Source of the DNA: Deinococcales bacterium | Lineage (GTDB): Bacteria > Deinococcota > Deinococci > Deinococcales > JAAFIG01 | Assembly (NCBI GenBank): GCA_031414595.1 | Contig: JANNVX010000094.1 | Location: 1 to 11,083 of the forward strand | Length of the DNA: 11,083 nt | Direction: 5' to 3' | In this document: positions 4,049-10,810 of the stretch, in pieces | Numbering within the stretch: the stretch's first letter is position 1 | Layout of the letters: each line of letters starts with the position of its first letter | Program-made: the position numbers and the translations under genes | Notes under the pieces: model-generated | Told to the model about the DNA's origin: nothing | The model's database searches: none | Seen by the model: the letters and a program-made list of their open reading frames with translations, nothing else

Positions 4049-4121
4049 AAAACAGTGTACTTTTTTTGCCAATTATCAGTGTGAGGGATTAAAAATTTGT
4101 TTGTATTCAACTATTTTGTGC

Positions 4122-4149
4122 TTGTAAACTCTAAAACTTCTGCTACACT
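4122..4149 (+). promoter_or_regulatory. sigma70-type promoter for the leaderless antitoxin/PIN operon
   Basis: TTGTAA (4122-4127), 16-nt spacer, extended -10 TG-c-TACACT (4141-4149), ATG 6 nt downstream at 4156. Confidence 0.55.
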
Positions 4150-4155
4150 AAAATC

Positions 4156-4404
4156 ATGATTGCAATTCATTCCAAAACCCAACAAATCATTTTGGAATCC
4201 CTCGAGCAAATCGAACCAATAGCGATTCTGCGAGATGGTCTGATTACAGGATATTACGTGCCTGTTATTCCGAATCATGCGGACACACAGGCAATACGGG
4301 CATCATCTGAGGTGATGCAGCAATGGCTCGAGGCTCGAGGGATTCGTGAGGACGATGTTCTGGCTGATTTTAATTCATTGCGTAAAAATCAACACTCTGC
4401 ATGA
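4156..4404 (+). CDS. Phd/YefM-like antitoxin
   Basis: 82 aa. 'PIAILRDG..TGYYVP' and the C-terminal 'GIREDDVLADFNSLRK' resemble Phd-type antitoxins paired with PIN toxins. Its stop overlaps the PIN start (ATGA 4401-4404). Confidence 0.7.
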   Translation: MIAIHSKTQQIILESLEQIEPIAILRDGLITGYYVPVIPNHADTQAIRASSEVMQQWLEARGIREDDVLADFNSLRKNQHSA

Positions 4405-4610
4405 AACGTATTGTTATAGATGCCAACGTTTTGATTCGAGCTATTCTTGGAGTTCGAGTCGCTGGACATATCGCACAGCACGCAACTACGGTACAATTCT
4501 TGTGTTGGCACTTTGCCTAGGAAGGACGCACCAATACTGGGGCAAGATTGGTATCGGGATGCACTTGGCACATCACTTTACAATCTTCAAACAAGATGAA
4601 ACAATAGAAT
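4401..4610 (+). pseudogene. Decayed PIN-domain (VapC-like) toxin
   Basis: 4401-4520 translates to MKRIVIDANVLIRAILGVRVAGHIAQHATTVQFLCWHFA*, a typical PIN N-terminus (IDAN motif) that stops at 39 aa. Pieces resembling the PIN C-terminus (VLALCL, DAPI, GIG, TW) follow in shifted frames. The right boundary is approximate. Confidence 0.7.
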
Positions 4611-4865
4611 TCCCAAACGACAGCAAAAACCTACAATTTGTAGATAACCTCAAAGACATAAAACCAAGCGAACTCAATGGTACAGGTACAATCGCGGTAC
4701 TCAAATTCACAAATCAAATGAATATGGGCAAAGAAATATTCTCGGTTATCCCCTCGAGTAAACGTTCTAAGTGAATTTGCGGTATCTTTGAGTGCAATGA
4801 AGTTTTCACTCGAGTTGGCAGCAAAAAGCGTCCGTAGGTTTACAAGGGCATAGTTGAATGTCAAA

Positions 4866-5618
4866 TTATAGAGCGTCGAAAAAATCTTTTGCGTCCATTC
4901 CAATATGTTTTATTCCCTGCGTCTTCAAAAAGTCCTGCACTTGAGCATTGAGTGGTTTGCGTGTAACTGCATACCTAGGCGGACGAGCATTACCAAGTGC
5001 TTGATGGAGTTGTTTTTCAATCCAAGTGATGTTCGAGCGTCCAAAACCAAAACCCACATAAACCATTGAGTGGGTTTTAGCCATTTCAATGTATTCCAAA
5101 AACAATGCGGGTTGTGAAACCAAAGCACAGTCCATTTGAAGTTGAGTCAGTGCCAAAGGCGGTTGGTTCATGCCAATATGAGCGATACAGCCGTGCATCT
5201 TGAGATACAGCGTGCCTAGATTCTTTGGTTTTTGCCCTGAAACCCAAGTGACCAATGGCTTTTTAGACTGCTCATAGGAGCGTTCAAGCACCAGATTGTA
5301 ATTGGTTGTAGCAATCATTGCCCAATTTTGCTTGGGGATTTTGAAATGGAAATCGTTTGGAATAAGGTTCTCGAGATAATTAGCAATAAATGCCTCGACC
5401 ACATCGCGCCCATGCAGACTTTCGGCAAACGCACTGACCGACTCGAGTGTATCTCCAACTATACCGAATTCGGTTGTTAATTTTTCTTGTAGCTCTTTAC
5501 CTGTAAGCGGAGGTTTAAGCAGGTCTCTGCTCAGCGCACCTGCGGTTGCGCCAGACCCAAGAAACAGCACCACTTTGCCAGCCTTAATATCCGCTTGCAA
5601 TTGTGTAGGAATGGTCAT
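4866..5618 (-). CDS. Stand-alone SIR2-like (SIR2_2) domain protein with non-canonical motifs
   Basis: 250 aa. VVLFLGSGAT, IATTNYN, YLKMHGC and MVYVGFGF correspond in order to the SIR2-like GAGxS, TTNYD, KxHG and GYS motifs. Confidence 0.85.
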   Translation of the reverse strand: MTIPTQLQADIKAGKVVLFLGSGATAGALSRDLLKPPLTGKELQEKLTTEFGIVGDTLESVSAFAESLHGRDVVEAFIANYLENLIPNDFHFKIPKQNWAMIATTNYNLVLERSYEQSKKPLVTWVSGQKPKNLGTLYLKMHGCIAHIGMNQPPLALTQLQMDCALVSQPALFLEYIEMAKTHSMVYVGFGFGRSNITWIEKQLHQALGNARPPRYAVTRKPLNAQVQDFLKTQGIKHIGMDAKDFFDAL

Positions 5619-5624
5619 GGGCTA

Positions 5625-5652
5625 ATTGTAGGGCAGTCAAGCATTTTGTCAA
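5625..5652 (-). promoter_or_regulatory. Near-consensus sigma70 promoter for the SIR2-like gene (leaderless)
   Basis: Minus strand TTGACA (5652-5647), 16-nt spacer, TACAAT (5630-5625), ATG 6 nt downstream at 5618. Confidence 0.7.
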
Positions 5653-5679
5653 CGCATGAACGCACGATTCGTGAAAATT

Positions 5680-5719
5680 TGCTATGATTTTCCTCACAAA
5701 CTAAAAAGTAAAGCGGGAG
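5680..5719 (+). promoter_or_regulatory. Extended -10 promoter and Shine-Dalgarno for the nitrilase-patatin operon
   Basis: TG-c-TATGAT at 5680-5688. GGGAG at 5715-5719, before the ATG at 5724. Confidence 0.5.
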
Positions 5720-5723
5720 TGAT

Positions 5724-8291
5724 ATGACGAACGGAACTGACCAATCTGGGACTTCTAAGCCACTTGATTCAAACACCAAAGCCAATCTAAAAACTGCGGT
5801 GCGAACATATTGGCAAGTCATGGAAATGCTGATTAGAAGCCGCAAAAGCGCTTTTAAGAAAGATGGCGATGATGATACTCAAGAAAAATCCATAGACAAA
5901 TCTGATTATGAAAACTGGGAGTATTGGCTCGAATGGTCACCAGATGTTTTTGCACTGACATCGCTGATTCTCGAGACCACTGGCTGGTATCGGGATATGC
6001 CAGACAATGATTTTGCTAAACACCCAATACCAAAAAATGCAAAAGTTGAATGGAAGCACATTCGTAGAGCGTGGCTGGCTTTGATGTCTGGCGAGTTGAC
6101 TAGAATTTTGATAGACAACAAAGTAATTTCTCGAGGTGACGACGAGTTAAAATCCGTCCTATCAAACCTCGAAGAGTTTGATAAAGGTAAACCAAACACA
6201 GCCTTAGAAAAAATACTTTTGGATGAAGAGCATGAGGGGCAAGAAGATTTCCCTACATTGGTACTAGAAGCAGTCAAATACATTAAAAAAATAATTTCCG
6301 AACTGCATCAGACTTTTACCAACCAGAACATAAAATTGAATAAGGGTGAGTCCTCTGGCAGTTGGGAAAAAGATATACGCGATAAAATCTTCTGGCTTCA
6401 TGCTGCTTCAGATGAAGCCTCTAAGAATTTTGGTTTTATGAGTGGTGGACATGGGCATTGTACCATCGTTAAATTTCTTGCCCACAGCTTTCTTGAAATT
6501 CGTGGTTCTTTGTCGCGGATTGATAGGCACTTTGGTGTCGTACTGCCAAAAATGCGTACCCCACAGGTCGGACTAACTTTGCGGAGCGCTTCACACCACT
6601 TGTGTTTTTGTCGCTCAGAGGTTATAACCACTTGGCGCACTTTTCCGTGGATTGGAAATACAGAACGTGAAATGAGCGTTTTGCTTGTACCGTATCCAGC
6701 AACTTTTCAACGTAACGCCATAAAACCAGTTGTGCCTAAATCAAAACCTGCTGATGGTTATGGATATTTTACTTACGAACCAAAACCTGACCAATCTGGT
6801 ACTGCTGCTGTTCAGTACGTTAAAAGTTTGCTCGAAAAGGCAGAAGAAGAAATAAATAAATCCATTGATGTTATTTTAATGCCAGAATTATCGTTAAGCC
6901 CTGAAGAATTCGAGCAAATATTAGCCTTTTTAGAGCAGCACGGTACTAAAGGAGATACGAAAACTCCGCCAGTTCTGATTGCAGGGGTTCGTGGATTTTT
7001 ATCCAAATCACCTGACTGTAAACAGCAAGATGATACACAAGATAAACAAGGTCAAAACATCGTCTATGTCGCCGCTTATTTCTACGACCAGTGGTGTGTT
7101 TATGAGCAACATAAGCACCATCGCTGGATGCTCGAGAAGCAACAAATCAATCAGTATAAGTTGACCCTGCCAACCAACAAAAAGTATTGGGAAAATATCG
7201 AGATTCCGAGTCGCAACGTTACTTTTTTTATGCCAAACCCGTGGCTCTGCCTCTGCCCACTTATTTGCGAAGACTTAGCCCGAAGCGAGCCAGTCTCGAG
7301 TTTAATCCGTACCGTTGGACCGAACTTGTTGGTAGCGCTGCTGCTCGATGGACCTCAACTCAAGGAACGCTGGTCGGGACGATATGCGGCTGTTTTTGCC
7401 GATGACCCCGGTTGTAGCGTGATTACCCTGACCTCGCTTGGTTTTGTTGAACAAGTCAGGTACAGCGACCAAGTGCCGAACAGAACCATTTCTTTGTACA
7501 AACAAAACGATGGCACAACCCTGCCTATTTTGCTCCACGAAAACGAAAGTGGTGCAATTATTACCCTAAAGGCAGTATCGGAAAAAGAATTTAGTGTGGA
7601 TGGGCGTAGTGATGAAGGAATTGCTAGTTATATCAGAATTCAAGACCCAAGAGTATTGCCGATTGCAAAACCAAATGACTCAGAGGTGACCTTAGATACT
7701 AAAATAGTCCCCCAAAACTATAGTGGCTATAGCATTACCGAGCAAATGACCATAACATTGCTTTCAATTTGTACAGATGTTTGTTTGGAAGCAACAAAAG
7801 AAGTCTTAGAGGATGTAGAGGCAATAATATTACAACGTAATGATTTTAATCTAAATACATGGCAACCGAAAACACATTGTACGCCAGCCATTGCAAAATT
7901 TGTTGCAAAAGAAATTCAAAGCAAACTACTAGATTTTTTGAAAAAGGAAGATGATATTGAGAAAGAAAGTAAATGGGTGACTCGATTAGAAATTCTATTG
8001 GCATTTATAAGACAAGCCTCTGATCAACAACCTCGAGATTGGAATGCAAGAAGACAACAGTGGGATAACTTGGTCGAAAGCCTGTCCAAAAATGACGCTG
8101 ATCCGCTTGTAAAAAAATTAGTCTATTGGACTATTCATAACCGTTTAGACTTTTATAAGTCCCAGCCTCGGCATTTGGAAAAACCAGATGAAGATACAGT
8201 GAATAAAGAATTAGGTAAGATTTATTCAGAATTCTACAAGATATACGAACCTCAAGCACACAAATCAGCTTCACTTGAGGGCAGTAAATGA
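5724..8291 (+). CDS. Large carbon-nitrogen hydrolase (nitrilase-fold) domain protein with uncharacterised N- and C-terminal regions
   Basis: 855 aa. Triad-like motifs in nitrilase order: DVILMPELSL (E388), YEQHKHH (K464), PLICEDLA (C515). About 300 aa N-terminal and about 210 aa C-terminal extensions are not recognised. Confidence 0.75.
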   Translation: MTNGTDQSGTSKPLDSNTKANLKTAVRTYWQVMEMLIRSRKSAFKKDGDDDTQEKSIDKSDYENWEYWLEWSPDVFALTSLILETTGWYRDMPDNDFAKHPIPKNAKVEWKHIRRAWLALMSGELTRILIDNKVISRGDDELKSVLSNLEEFDKGKPNTALEKILLDEEHEGQEDFPTLVLEAVKYIKKIISELHQTFTNQNIKLNKGESSGSWEKDIRDKIFWLHAASDEASKNFGFMSGGHGHCTIVKFLAHSFLEIRGSLSRIDRHFGVVLPKMRTPQVGLTLRSASHHLCFCRSEVITTWRTFPWIGNTEREMSVLLVPYPATFQRNAIKPVVPKSKPADGYGYFTYEPKPDQSGTAAVQYVKSLLEKAEEEINKSIDVILMPELSLSPEEFEQILAFLEQHGTKGDTKTPPVLIAGVRGFLSKSPDCKQQDDTQDKQGQNIVYVAAYFYDQWCVYEQHKHHRWMLEKQQINQYKLTLPTNKKYWENIEIPSRNVTFFMPNPWLCLCPLICEDLARSEPVSSLIRTVGPNLLVALLLDGPQLKERWSGRYAAVFADDPGCSVITLTSLGFVEQVRYSDQVPNRTISLYKQNDGTTLPILLHENESGAIITLKAVSEKEFSVDGRSDEGIASYIRIQDPRVLPIAKPNDSEVTLDTKIVPQNYSGYSITEQMTITLLSICTDVCLEATKEVLEDVEAIILQRNDFNLNTWQPKTHCTPAIAKFVAKEIQSKLLDFLKKEDDIEKESKWVTRLEILLAFIRQASDQQPRDWNARRQQWDNLVESLSKNDADPLVKKLVYWTIHNRLDFYKSQPRHLEKPDEDTVNKELGKIYSEFYKIYEPQAHKSASLEGSK

Positions 8292-10810
8292 GCCACACGG
8301 TGCCGCGTCATACGGTGCGTTTTTCTACGGTGATGTTTGGTGGAACAAGCCTAGCAATTTACATGAGCGGTGTCGCCCAAGAATTACTGCACCTGACTCG
8401 AGCTACCCAAAAAACCTTTGGAGAATGTTCTGACCTCGAGAAACAGTATTTTCATATCGCCAATTTGTATGGACATTTCCGTCAACATGAAAATAAAGAC
8501 TTACCAGTACAAATGCTAAAGTGTACAGATTCTCAATACGCCAGCGCAGAATTTATCGTTGATATTCTAAGTGGTACTTCGGCAGGTGGATTAAACGCCT
8601 CTTTTCTGGCTCGAGCCTTGGTGATGGGTGGGGATTTAGAAGTATTGACTACAGTCTGGGCAAAGCAAGGAGGTGCGGCGGAATTACTGCAAGCACCAAA
8701 AGCAGCCAAGTGTTCGTTTTTTGATGGCGATAAATTTTTCCAAGAAATTTATAAAGCATTAGACCAGATTAAAGGTGAGTATCCAGTTAATTACAGGGTT
8801 GATTTGTTTAACACCGTAACCGACCTTCAAGGTATCAACCGTAAACTGCCTTTGATTAACCGCAACGAATTGGTTCATACCCATTTATTCCATTTCCGCT
8901 ATTCGCCTAGTGCAGCCTCTGACCCTTTTGCAAATACTACCATGCTTGCCTATGCCAGTAGGGTTAGCGCTGGAATTCCACCAGCATTCAGTACCCTTTC
9001 CCTAAAAGAAGCCTATGCACTAAACGGTAGTTCAGAATTGTTAAACGGCAACTTATTTCCAAAAGAATTAAAAGATAAATTTGCAATACGCCGATACAGC
9101 GATGGTGGTATTTTGGACAATAAACCTTTTGGTGCTGCGATTAAGGCCATGAAAAATAGCTATGGCGTTGGGCGTAGGGTTTTGATTTATCTCGAGCCAA
9201 TAGGAGAAGCATCAATAGCACAAAGCCCCGAAAATAATCCAACCCATCCCTTTTTTGACCTGCTTAAAAGTGGTTTAGACATTCGTCAAAAAGAAAATAT
9301 TCGCACCGATTTAGAGCAGTTAGAAAGAATAAACATATTGGCTCAACACCTTCAAAAAACAGAAGCATATATTTTAGGAAAAGTTGAGCTTACAAGAATT
9401 AAAGACTTTGAAAAATCATCTCTGGACGATATGGTCAAGGTCTATGGGATGGGTTATCCGATGTACCATAAACTTAAACTCGATTTGGTACTCAATTGGT
9501 TAGCCCAACGGATGGCTCATGTTTTTGACGACAGCCAAACCTTAAAGCAGATTCAGAATCAATTACAAGATTGGTACACACGTCACTACAGCGATAACGG
9601 GGAAGATAACAAATTATTTGCAAACACTTTCTTAAATGACTTTGATGTTCTATTTAGAATTCGCCGTTTAGTGAGCTTGCGCGACGTAGTGCGGCGCGAA
9701 TATTTGAAGAATGCCACCGAGGAACATAAACAGCTATACAACGACCTCGAGCGCTATATCCAAATATGGGACAACGTAGATGAAAGAATCCAAAATGACC
9801 CGAAGTGCAGGGAGGCAATCCAGGCATTTTTGCAAACCGAAAAGCCTACGGCAGACGCTCTTAACACACTAAAAGTTCTCATCGAAAAAACTCGCCAAGA
9901 TGTGTCCGAGTCACTTAAAAAAACATTAAAACTGGACAAAAATAACCTCAATAATCCAACTTCTTTTCTAAAGCATTACTTGAGTTCTAATCACATCGAT
10001 ATGGTGCTGCTGCCAGCCGCCGCAACTTTGGGGGATGAGCGGTTAATTCCAATAGATGTCTGGCGAATTGGGACAGAAGAAGCCTCAACAAGAAAATTTG
10101 AGCCACCAAAATTAGCGGGGGTACAATTGGCATTTTTCGGGGCTTTTTTTCGTACAGAATGGAGGTTAAACGATATTTTGTGGGGTAGGTTGGATGCCAG
10201 CGAGATTCTGGTCAAGCGATTATTTTCCTATGAAACTTTGACTGAACCTCAACAGCATCAACTGGATAAAGTTATTGAAAACCTACAAAATGCCATCTGG
10301 ATAGATTTTTGGAACAGCATCAGCCGCGACAAAGACATGAAAACAAAATTCACCGAGCTATACACAAGTGCAGGAGACAACACAAACCTTGATACTGTTT
10401 TAGCAAGCCGACTGGACGAAATGTCACTAGACGCTAGAAAAGACATGAAAACGCTGGTGAAAGCCTTGCGTTTTTTACCAACGTTTTTTAATTTTACCAA
10501 GACTGGCTTAAAAATAGCCGATGGTCTTGCCACTACTTGGGTCAATTTTCAAAATGGAATGAGAACGTGGTTTGCTGTAAATATCATATTGACCGTATTT
10601 GTATTTTGTCTCAATTTGGGGCAGATTGCTCAGTATCTAGCCATTATGTTGTGGGCAGTGTGGTTTTTTATTTGTGGCACTCTTTTAGTGTGGCGCTTTT
10701 TGCCAACTTTGGTCGGGTTCTATTTTGGAATTGTCTTACCATTCTCAAAATGGATTAAAGCACTGCTTGCTAGAGAAGTTAAAAAGTCGATTCCTAGTGA
10801 TTTGTCCTGA
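8288..10810 (+). CDS. Patatin-like phospholipase with DUF3376-type region and C-terminal transmembrane helices
   Basis: 840 aa. Oxyanion loop GGTSLAIY, nucleophile GTSAG (S98), catalytic DGG (D272, YSDGGILDNKPF). The segment KLAGVQLAFFGAFFRTEWRLNDILWGRLDASE is DUF3376-type. Hydrophobic tail at about aa 760-820. ATGA overlap with the upstream gene. Confidence 0.88.
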   Translation: MSHTVPRHTVRFSTVMFGGTSLAIYMSGVAQELLHLTRATQKTFGECSDLEKQYFHIANLYGHFRQHENKDLPVQMLKCTDSQYASAEFIVDILSGTSAGGLNASFLARALVMGGDLEVLTTVWAKQGGAAELLQAPKAAKCSFFDGDKFFQEIYKALDQIKGEYPVNYRVDLFNTVTDLQGINRKLPLINRNELVHTHLFHFRYSPSAASDPFANTTMLAYASRVSAGIPPAFSTLSLKEAYALNGSSELLNGNLFPKELKDKFAIRRYSDGGILDNKPFGAAIKAMKNSYGVGRRVLIYLEPIGEASIAQSPENNPTHPFFDLLKSGLDIRQKENIRTDLEQLERINILAQHLQKTEAYILGKVELTRIKDFEKSSLDDMVKVYGMGYPMYHKLKLDLVLNWLAQRMAHVFDDSQTLKQIQNQLQDWYTRHYSDNGEDNKLFANTFLNDFDVLFRIRRLVSLRDVVRREYLKNATEEHKQLYNDLERYIQIWDNVDERIQNDPKCREAIQAFLQTEKPTADALNTLKVLIEKTRQDVSESLKKTLKLDKNNLNNPTSFLKHYLSSNHIDMVLLPAAATLGDERLIPIDVWRIGTEEASTRKFEPPKLAGVQLAFFGAFFRTEWRLNDILWGRLDASEILVKRLFSYETLTEPQQHQLDKVIENLQNAIWIDFWNSISRDKDMKTKFTELYTSAGDNTNLDTVLASRLDEMSLDARKDMKTLVKALRFLPTFFNFTKTGLKIADGLATTWVNFQNGMRTWFAVNIILTVFVFCLNLGQIAQYLAIMLWAVWFFICGTLLVWRFLPTLVGFYFGIVLPFSKWIKALLAREVKKSIPSDLS

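Follow-up and report, generated by a model that had tools for sequence, protein, structure and literature searches.

The locus and its gene product

We describe here a stretch of 11,083 nt, referred to throughout as the window, that makes up positions 1 to 11,083 of contig JANNVX010000094.1 in the assembly of a Deinococcales bacterium (GCA_031414595.1). Our subject is the gene at 5724..8291 on its forward strand, the longest of all open reading frames (ORFs) in the window, whose 855-residue product, P0001, is assigned from its translation and its relatives to the nitrilase superfamily, as a divergent member. The gene has an ATG start, and direct reading of the sequence places a Shine-Dalgarno element, GGGAG (5715..5719, + strand), 4 nt ahead of it. 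It is followed directly by a gene for a patatin-like lipase and preceded by a divergent SIR2-like gene.

An earlier note on this DNA, made from the sequence alone, had described the product as a nitrilase-superfamily protein with an intact Glu-Lys-Cys triad, lacking the reverse transcriptase (RT), synthetase or Lnt partner domains that might be expected of so large a protein. The motifs that it quoted are all present in the translation: QHKHHRW at residues 462–468, LICEDLAR at 513–520, WSPDVFAL at 71–78 and LHAASDEAS at 225–233, together with LLLDGPQLKERWSGRYAAVFADDPG at 539–563 and VLPKMRTPQVGLTLRSASHHL at 273–293; likewise, residues 388, 464 and 515 read Glu, Lys and Cys. As far as tested, the partner domains were also not detected: Pfam and NCBIfam scans of the full 855 residues returned no family at E ≤ 0.1, and a phmmer search against all PDB chains gave nothing at E ≤ 10. 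Moreover, no 19-residue window reaches a Kyte-Doolittle hydrophobicity of 1.6 (the maximum is 1.46), from which we conclude that a membrane domain of the Lnt type is absent. The sole sequence model to match P0001 is 'RT_UG5-nitrilase' of PADLOC, and this match is both weak and local (E 8.8e-6, 22 bits, residues 362–493).

A predicted nitrilase fold with an invariant Glu-Lys-Cys triad

An AlphaFold2 model of P0001, built from an alignment of 35 sequences, has a mean predicted local distance difference test (pLDDT) score of 79.8 and a predicted template modelling (pTM) score of 0.87, and its central region, residues ~313–645 (6660..7658, + strand), is recognized as a nitrilase or C-N hydrolase fold by two independent structural searches. 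In the first of these, conducted with VIA, the top 24 rows are all nitrilase-superfamily chains (Z 13.6–16.8, with 215–252 residues aligned), which span residues 310–643 of the model; the rows that follow drop to Z 9.6 and 7.9, the former comprising generic helical matches to the C-terminal tail. The best match is to Nit2 (PDB code: 4h5u; Z 16.8, root-mean-square deviation 4.2, 252 residues aligned), and the lowest, at Z 13.6, are to an NAD+ synthetase (3ilv) and, equally, to Lnt (8aq2). The second, a Foldseek search of the PDB, gave 69 matches at E ≤ 0.001, the best with E 4.6e-6, and the best 50 of these 69 are all from the superfamily (beta-ureidopropionase, formamidase, Nit2, NAD+ synthetase and vanin). 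No single branch is favoured, as Nit2, plant nitrilase, the amidases, carbamoylase, the glutaminase domain of NAD+ synthetase, vanin, N-terminal amidase and Lnt all fall within ~3 Z units of one another. The check by AlphaFold and Foldseek that the earlier note had proposed thus places residues ~313–640 in a predicted nitrilase-superfamily alpha-beta-beta-alpha sandwich.

To assess conservation, P0001 was aligned with 135 relatives drawn from genomes and metagenomes (136 sequences in all), and, for comparison with the canonical enzymes, the family core was aligned using hhalign with a reference set of 15 PF00795 proteins taken from related genomes. The hhalign probability is 14% when the family is represented by the 35 sequences and 33% (E 4.6e-4) when represented by all 136. 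Three residues stand out. Glu388 (codon 6885..6887, + strand), the candidate catalytic base, is present in 136/136 sequences and falls on the Glu of the canonical 'PE' motif in both alignments. Cys515 (7266..7268, + strand), the candidate nucleophile, lies within an invariant C-E-D-L motif; it is again present in 136/136 and falls on the canonical Cys in both, which in the better, 136-sequence alignment is that of 'IC-x-D'. Lys464 (7113..7115, + strand), which resides in an invariant Q-x-K-H-H-R-W motif and is similarly conserved in 136/136, coincides with the canonical Lys in the better alignment only; in the weaker one, they are two columns apart. The predicted secondary structure is consistent with these assignments: Glu388 is inside the strand 383–391, Lys464 is just past the strand 457–463, and Cys515 is just past the strand 510–513 and is followed by the helix 523–531. 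Taken from the profile alignments, Glu388, Lys464 and Cys515 would therefore constitute a Glu-Lys-Cys triad at the canonical positions, and, given the fold match to the model, these residues would be expected to meet at the active site.

The invariance extends well beyond the putative triad. Within the fold, Gln462, His465, His466, Trp468, Gln474, Glu490, Arg497, Glu516, Asp517, Leu518, Asp542, Gln545, Arg549, Trp550, Asp561, Pro562, Asp626 and Arg628 are also conserved in 136/136 sequences, as are Asp230 and Gly283 in the N-terminal module. The family-specific invariant motifs are Q-x-K-H-H-R-W, C-E-D-L-A-R, D-G-P-Q-L-x2-R-W and D-x-R. Since the invariance of the triad region holds across phyla, we regard it as a conserved active-site signature.

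The canonical family profile does not recognize these proteins: none of 35 family members reaches PF00795 (the best E is 0.21), and a PF00795 search of the parent genome found four other genes, with P0001 not among them. These four are three Lnt-like proteins of ~500 residues (C79:7244–7855, C12:4502–4993 and C52:4499–5122) and a canonical nitrilase-family protein of 312 residues. A profile built from the 35 members and searched against the PDB sequences likewise found no nitrilase, its only matches being coiled-coil noise in the tail region (best E 0.013).

The N-terminal module

The region that precedes the fold, residues ~59–312 (5898..6659, + strand), is mostly helical and is a defining feature of the family. 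The earlier note had taken this long N-terminal region for an extension; this view is not sustained, as its motifs, WPPDxFAL...GAY, AxADEAxxGxG and VLPKxxTPQxGLTxRS, are 95–100% conserved even in family members of 520–600 residues. The same applies at the level of individual positions (Trp71/Pro73/Phe76/Tyr89, Asp230, Pro275-Lys276, Gly283 and Arg287 are 95–100% conserved in all forms), and, therefore, we consider the module to be part of the family core. It ends in an invariant strand-turn segment, VLPK(M)RTPQxGLTLRS, and, in P0001, it holds ~60–90 additional, poorly conserved residues. When folded alone, the module attains a pLDDT of 74.8, and the resulting model found no counterpart in the PDB: the best VIA match had Z 4.9 (no chain reached Z ≥ 5) and the best Foldseek match had E 1.9, with nothing at E ≤ 0.001. 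As modelled, then, the module resembles no solved fold that we could find, which is not proof of a new fold.

The C-terminal extension and a probable small helical partner

Residues ~667–855 of P0001 (7722..8288, + strand) form a seven-helix extension in the model (helices within 671–841), and this feature is confined to the longer members of the family, hereafter the long forms. The tail had been described in the earlier note as charged and helical; the model bears out the helices over residues 660–855, whereas the charge is only slightly raised (30% Asp/Glu/Lys/Arg, as against 27% for the whole protein). Structurally, it matches only generic helical proteins (VIA, Z ≤ 9.6). In the long forms, a variable linker is followed by the motif D-[IL]-x-E-[LI]-[ST]-x3-[FY]-x2-D-A and then by helices; in P0001, the tail begins with a degenerate copy of this motif, near residues 668–685.

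The short forms are instead accompanied by a separate gene. Directly downstream of them lies a small ORF encoding a helical protein of ~65–110 residues, often with an Arg/Lys-rich tail; examples are found at L028:9381–9671, L056:9322–9579 and L174:8153–8407, and at about 68 further loci. Its motifs are L-[ST]-x2-D-A-[SY]-x-L-x2-[IL]-A in the N-terminal helix, a central A-[RK]-x-[IV]-A and then A-A-x3-R-x-W-A. A Pfam search with 10 of these partners returned nothing significant (best E 0.015). From 160 related loci, in 157 of which the enzyme ORF was identified, we took the 135 where the gene is complete and is followed by 400 nt or more of sequence, and searched for a same-strand ORF directly 3′ with a hidden Markov model (HMM) of the partner. 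It is present at 53 of the 79 loci where the enzyme has fewer than 620 residues, at 4 of the 14 with 620–699 residues, and at none of the 42 with 700 or more. In a few loci, such as L131 (which is outside the 135), the small ORF is fused to the enzyme. In the window, the partner HMM gave no match at E ≤ 0.05, the gene downstream of P0001 being that of the 840-residue patatin-like protein. The copy on a Massilia plasmid has a gene for a 123-residue hypothetical protein annotated 13 nt downstream.

Short forms that do not have the main partner are often followed by other small ORFs, which fall into three further small sequence clusters: one at L024:9790–10254, L030:9785–10267, L064:5600–6025 and L169:4067–4450, and others at L013:4691–5038 with L050:9316–9663, and at L018:9371–9751 with L135:4010–4300. 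These may be alternative partners.

The complex of one short-form enzyme (L056, 597 residues) with its 85-residue partner was predicted with an ipSAE score of 0.81 (0.80–0.83 between runs), compared with 0.01 for the best of three controls. This passes the mark applied to the score, as do 116 of 157 solved complexes but just 2 of 215 mismatched pairs; these counts hold roughly, because our own alignments were used here. At least 44% of the contacts are common to the runs, and the pLDDT of the partner is at least 73. The partner engages through its first ~20 and last ~18 residues, and, on the enzyme, the contacts involve a helix of the N-terminal module, the junction between module and fold, and strand segments of the fold, which correspond to residues ~244–259, 305–316, 414–415, 505–507 and 619 of P0001. 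The predicted complex supports binding of the small partner to the short-form enzyme.

Given the complementary distribution of tail and partner gene, we suggest that the tail of the long forms stands in for the separate partner of the short forms. The earlier note had proposed that the extensions are sensor or oligomerization modules; for the tail, this distribution speaks for a function in regulation or as a partner rather than for generic oligomerization. That the tail is itself homologous to the partner was considered and found to be unsupported (hhalign probability 0.2%, hmmsearch E ≥ 0.096), as only a loose resemblance between 'LWAIHNR' and 'R-x-W-A-x2-N' is apparent.

Size and distribution of the family

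The gene is real. Of 7,998 candidates scored in a word-indexed search, 551 proved to be relatives of P0001 at E ≤ 1e-3, and an exhaustive profile search of 1.84 billion representatives brought the family to 2,691 clusters at the same threshold, of which 2,080 were at E ≤ 1e-10 and 1,563 at E ≤ 1e-30. Pattern scans confirmed at least 568 relatives in species genomes (600 stretches) and at least 531 in metagenomes (599 stretches). The named hosts include Acidobacteriota, Bacteroidota, Myxococcota, Chloroflexota, Planctomycetota, Actinomycetota, Gemmatimonadota-type bacteria (Longimicrobium), Bdellovibrionota and Pseudomonadota, and relatives are also present in 12 of 72,556 plasmid records. Among the matches listed (120 relatives), all of the source names are 'hypothetical protein' or equivalent, and a precomputed Pfam domain, a PAS fold, is given for one protein only. 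The ESM Atlas yielded only look-alike unnamed 'hypothetical' clusters, in one of which 11% of the members carry CN_hydrolase.

Judged from sequence, the family is a large and very divergent nitrilase branch that is matched by no Pfam or NCBIfam family. The term 'uncharacterized branch', used in the earlier note, is therefore apt: the fold match, the 136/136 conservation of Glu, Lys and Cys and the empty Pfam and NCBIfam scans all point to a deeply divergent branch of the superfamily with no recognizable partner domain. In a FastTree phylogeny of the family core (midpoint-rooted, and thus descriptive only), three groups are apparent, namely, the long forms, the partner-bearing short forms and the other short forms; P0001 is a long basal branch inside the first of these. 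Pfam searches with 38 long members of up to 1,401 residues found no domains in the extensions, except for PAS in two (residues 10–105, at the N-terminus of P0110, and residues 867–964, at the C-terminus of the protein encoded at L068:3488–6439).

Genomic context of P0001

The stop codon of the P0001 gene overlaps the start codon of the next gene in an ATGA sequence (8288..8291, + strand), and a GAGGG element at 8277–8281 lies 7 nt upstream; the overlap and the GAGGG ahead of the second start codon indicate translational coupling. The downstream gene (8288..10810, + strand) encodes an 840-residue patatin-like lipase with a DUF3376 region (TIGR03607); the scores are 4.6e-8 for Patatin, 1.5e-18 for DUF3376 and 1.7e-94 for TIGR03607. 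It has the GTSAG motif at residue 96, DGG at residue 272, and C-terminal membrane segments at residues 757–817. A full-text literature search found no paper that mentions DUF3376.

Upstream, and divergent from the P0001 gene, is a gene for a 250-residue SIR2_2 (ThsA-like) protein (4866..5618, − strand; Pfam 2.3e-13, with a weak ThsA1 match at 2.9e-7), ahead of which the sequence contains a near-consensus promoter, TTGACA-16-TACAAT (5652–5625, − strand). Further upstream are two overlapping small ORFs (4156–4404 and 4346–4774, + strand) belonging to no Pfam or NCBIfam family, and patches at ~4142–4409 and ~4578–4814 show 76–97% identity to other contigs of same-genus genomes. At the opposite end of the window, the last 141 nt of the contig (10943..11083) are a multi-copy repeat, which is 99–100% identical to sequences at the ends of at least nine other contigs of the same genome and of which a shorter core of ~36 nt occurs in some 30 more places of the assembly. 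This repeat is probably the terminus of an insertion sequence (IS) that breaks the assembly and bounds the island described below.

None of 40 related genomes holds the P0001 gene, including seven of the same genus (completeness 57–94%). The patatin gene is likewise missing from those seven and was found only once elsewhere, in a genome of the same order (G023; 33% identity), where it has no nitrilase-like neighbour. Synteny with related genomes stops past an amine-oxidase gene, near position 4090. From the absence of these genes in relatives, the end of synteny and the repeat at the contig end, it follows that the SIR2, nitrilase-like and patatin genes make up an island specific to this strain, with the IS-type repeat as its boundary. 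The two neighbours of the nitrilase-like gene in this island encode enzymes of types common in defence by cell killing.

Neighbourhoods of the relatives

The genes surrounding the long forms were scanned at 44 loci, encompassing 132 proteins within ±2 genes (137 proteins at 45 loci qualified, but five very long proteins were dropped by size). Pfam domains of conflict or mobility type occur at about 15 of the 44. The former include TIR (L016 and L029), patatin (L117), DarT with Macro (L122), NACHT-TPR (L061), CHAT (L120), EAD11 (L010), HD-CE (L015), an ORC-CDC6-like protein (L022), the SocA_Panacea antitoxin (L136), AAA_21 (L129) and Sir2 (L121); the latter are a resolvase or transposases (L014, L025 and L157). 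PADLOC adds CARF6 (L022) and a PtuB-like protein (L169). Alongside these are ordinary genes of metabolism, transport and regulation, and many of the neighbouring proteins belong to no family at all. No RT family was found among the 132 neighbours, in P0001 or in the other ORFs of the window.

Two of these loci deserve description. At L122, a complete DarT/DarG pair (9517–11204; PADLOC 1e-60 and 2.8e-115) is located ~570 nt 3′ of the long-form member. At L029, which belongs to a metagenome-assembled genome of Pyrinomonadaceae and has the look of an island densely packed with conflict genes, the long-form member is flanked by a patatin-TIR fusion and a TIR-protein kinase-TPR protein (4837–6231 and 13560–16475), and DUF3800 and an M48 peptidase-WD40 protein are also present. 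Among the plasmid-borne copies, one on a Deinococcus megaplasmid is followed by a TPR protein and a VapBC pair, and the Massilia copy sits between a mer operon and IS3.

Comparison with known nitrilase-superfamily proteins

The closest structural counterparts of P0001 are the single-domain amidases, namely, Nit2 from yeast and mouse (4h5u and 2w1v), AmiF (5g3o and 2dyu), beta-ureidopropionase (2vhi) and aliphatic amidase (2plq), which share the alpha-beta-beta-alpha fold (Z 14.4–16.8) and present Glu, Lys and Cys in the corresponding motifs, 'PE', 'K-h' and 'IC-[ED]-D'. Nevertheless, the sequence identities are only 11–17%, and PF00795 misses all 35 of the family members searched. Moreover, the P0001 family has ~50 residues between Lys and Cys and its own invariant motifs, and it adds an N-terminal module that has no solved match, together with a helical tail or partner.

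The only sequence models to match the family are those of the nitrilases of DRT1/UG5, weakly and locally (only the 22 bits cited above for P0001 itself). Searched against the 35 members at E ≤ 0.01, the DRT-nitrilase models gave eight member-to-model matches (four to RTasNitrilase, three to RT_UG5-nitrilase and one to Drt1a), in which the members may overlap. In DRT1, according to PMC13275509, the nitrilase is an abortive-infection effector, and a C-terminal segment of the neighbouring protomer closes the nitrilase pocket as an inhibitory lid; UG-linked nitrilases, as reported in PMC13436386, are either fused to the RT or encoded by separate neighbouring genes. Whereas the defining RT is fused or adjacent in DRT1/UG5, none accompanies P0001, in the window or among the 132 neighbours of its relatives, and the N-terminal module of the P0001 family is different. 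A search with PDLC03780 over 364 genomes of the phylum gave matches to the RT part only, in two genomes.

Two multidomain enzymes invite comparison. Lnt uses a nitrilase-fold domain for acyl transfer to a protein N-terminus, its structure 8aq2 aligns with residues 282–619 of the P0001 model, and the operon partner of P0001 would handle membrane lipids. In contrast to Lnt, whose N-terminal part is a multi-span membrane domain, P0001 lacks any hydrophobic segment and matches no Lnt model, and the genome already has its three Lnt-like genes. The glutaminase domain of NAD+ synthetase is likewise a nitrilase fold within a larger protein (3dla, Z 15.4; 6ofb, Z 14.9; 3n05, Z 15.7), but the PP-loop NAD-synthase domain was not detected in P0001, whose C-terminal part is modelled as an all-helical bundle, and the Z-scores are no higher than those of other branches. 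Our literature search found no paper that describes the P0001 family or links nitrilase, patatin and anti-phage function, only the papers on DRT/UG having come up; PMC7159879 does not mention nitrilase, amidase or patatin.

Proposed function and alternatives

We propose, with a probability of roughly one half, that P0001 is a catalytically active Cys-amidase or acyl-transferase that carries its own regulator, and probably an effector in biological conflict or defence. That it would be a soluble, active thiol enzyme is suggested by the pattern of invariance, when interpreted through the chemistry of the superfamily. By the mechanism established for the latter, Cys515 would attack the carbonyl or nitrile carbon of a C-N bond, with Glu388 acting as the general base and Lys464 stabilizing the tetrahedral intermediate; the resulting thioester would then be either hydrolysed, in the case of an amidase, or handed to an amine, in the case of acyl transfer. 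The conserved Lys276 and Arg287 of the N-terminal module, together with His465, His466, Arg467, Arg549, Arg553 and Arg628 around the triad, may indicate a pocket for an anionic substrate. The helical regulator would be supplied in trans from the small downstream gene in the short forms and replaced by the C-terminal extension in long forms such as P0001; that it could control access or assembly is suggested by the division of the family into partner-bearing and tailed forms, by the binding predicted for the partner and by what is known of DRT1. Once this regulator lets go, the effector, whether anti-phage or toxin-type, would destroy or modify an essential amide-bearing molecule.

A conflict-system effector, if variants resembling toxin–antitoxin pairs are counted, is the single most likely role, with odds that we would place at, or somewhat short of, even. 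It is suggested by the coupling of the P0001 gene to that of a patatin, by the SIR2-like gene that faces it and by an island that has no counterpart in the relatives searched; and, for the family as a whole, by its accessory, patchy distribution, by the fast divergence of the small partners and by the company of TIR, DarTG, NACHT and CARF proteins. A fuller but more tentative version, which we regard as doubtful as a whole, is that the family represents the effector of a new, RT-independent class of conflict systems, related to the DRT1 nitrilase effector but uncoupled from it, in which an amidase is silenced either by a small helical protein, in a two-gene arrangement akin to a toxin–antitoxin pair, or by a fused tail, in a single chain such as P0001; in this genome, it would form a dual-effector module with the patatin, beside a gene of the SIR2 NADase type.

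Several observations weigh against these proposals. The sequence link to the canonical nitrilases is faint (hhalign probability 14–33%), as noted above, and nitrilases are described in PMC13275509 as having a Glu-Lys-Glu-Cys tetrad, for the second Glu of which the candidates here are Glu490 and Glu516 (both 136/136) and position 471 (Asp in 107 sequences, Asn in 17, Glu in 7 and Thr in 4), in a region where the alignment is unreliable. No homology can be detected between the tail and the partner, so that their equivalence is argued from distribution. The neighbour counts at the 44 long-form loci have no matched control and are suggestive only; at E ≤ 1e-12, specific PADLOC matches were obtained at just 5 of the 44 (DarT/DarG, CARF6, PtuB-like, PDC-S60 and a PD-T4-6-type kinase), in addition to generic ones; many of the neighbours are metabolic or housekeeping proteins (rhamnosidase, glutamine synthetase, GatB, RsmB, MFS and peptidases); and synteny is conserved at the Pyrinomonadaceae loci, a sign that the gene may have been inherited vertically in that group. 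A phage collection searched for relatives gave none in its 50,697 records. Finally, a tblastn search of the 160 related loci found no homologue of either the patatin or the SIR2 gene of the window (0/160), nor of the two small upstream ORFs, the sole match being to the amine-oxidase, in L125. The pairing with patatin and SIR2 is thus not a trait of the family, and the patatin would be an operon partner in this genome only.

The chief alternative, to which we assign something over one chance in five, is that P0001 is an ordinary metabolic amidase, carbamoylase or nitrilase, employed in nitrogen scavenging or secondary metabolism, whose additional modules serve stability or oligomerization and whose neighbours in the window are coincidental. 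Its characterized structural neighbours are, after all, metabolic enzymes without exception (Nit2, formamidase, beta-ureidopropionase and aliphatic amidase), and among the neighbours of its relatives are metabolic and transport genes, such as those of a branched-chain amino-acid ABC transporter, upstream of the family member on Deinococcus pDAETH-2, glutamine synthetase, asparaginase and penicillin amidase. The PAS domains in 2 of the 38 long members, as found in enzymes regulated by small molecules, and the conserved synteny in Pyrinomonadaceae also accord with this explanation. However, no conserved metabolic operon came to light: clustering of the neighbours at 80 genome loci gave no cluster over more than five loci, those that were obtained being synteny within one family. 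Moreover, a search of 40 related genomes did not find the gene, a catabolic amidase would not usually have a dedicated small partner that diverges fast and is predicted to bind it, and the operon partner of P0001 is a membrane lipase, neither a transporter nor a pathway enzyme. The converse alternative, that P0001 is a non-catalytic scaffold or pseudo-enzyme that has kept only the nitrilase fold, could account for the failure of every superfamily sequence model to recognize it, but is very improbable in view of the fact that Glu388, Lys464, Cys515 and some 25 positions around them are invariant (136/136) across many phyla.

The remaining two alternatives concern the substrate, and both appear unlikely to us. 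In the somewhat better placed of them, the enzyme modifies proteins or peptides at a terminus or a side-chain amide, by N-acylation as in Lnt or N-terminal deamidation as in Nta1, and its substrate is the small partner; for the long forms, it would be the tail of the enzyme itself or some other protein. Action on protein N-termini is known from two branches of the superfamily, and both are represented among the structural matches (Lnt 8aq2, Z 13.6; N-terminal amidase 5b62, Z 14.1); the partner is a small protein whose gene always comes directly after that of the enzyme, and, in the predicted L056 complex, its first seven residues make the most confident contacts, with residues 392–395 of the enzyme, just before the catalytic Lys400. 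Those contact residues precede the Lys along the strand, however, and may lie off the active-site end; the partner has no invariant columns, with only Met1 and Leu12 being near-invariant, and, given the lack of conservation at its N-terminus, no defined site of modification stands out; and the long forms have no such partner. The other alternative, which we consider slightly less probable again, is that P0001 and the patatin operate as a pair on membrane lipids, for example, through Lnt-like transfer or hydrolysis of N-acyl groups that uses or yields the fatty acids on which the lipase works. Here, the ATGA overlap and GAGGG indicate translational coupling, the patatin has an intact GTSAG/DGG dyad as well as its membrane segments, both genes are missing from the same seven same-genus genomes, and patatin-domain genes occur within ±2 genes at 2 of the 44 long-form loci (L029 and L117). 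Yet those two are on the opposite strand and have other architectures, a patatin homologue is found at none of the 160 related loci, P0001 has no membrane segment, and the basic residues of the putative pocket do not seem to point to a lipid substrate.

Whichever role applies, P0001 represents an architecturally distinct new branch of a known superfamily: it has, as modelled and aligned, the fold and the triad, and it falls outside the definition embodied in PF00795. Nitrilase-fold enzymes have only recently been seen in anti-phage immunity, in DRT1/UG5 (PMC13275509), and, if the role in conflict is true, this family of ~2,700 clusters would offer another, simpler setting for identifying the targets of nitrilase effectors. 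Even if the role were metabolic, an annotation gap would be filled for hundreds of 'hypothetical proteins' across many phyla, and a superfamily that has been studied in depth would gain a new branch, whose triad is surrounded by an uncommon array of invariant His and Arg residues.

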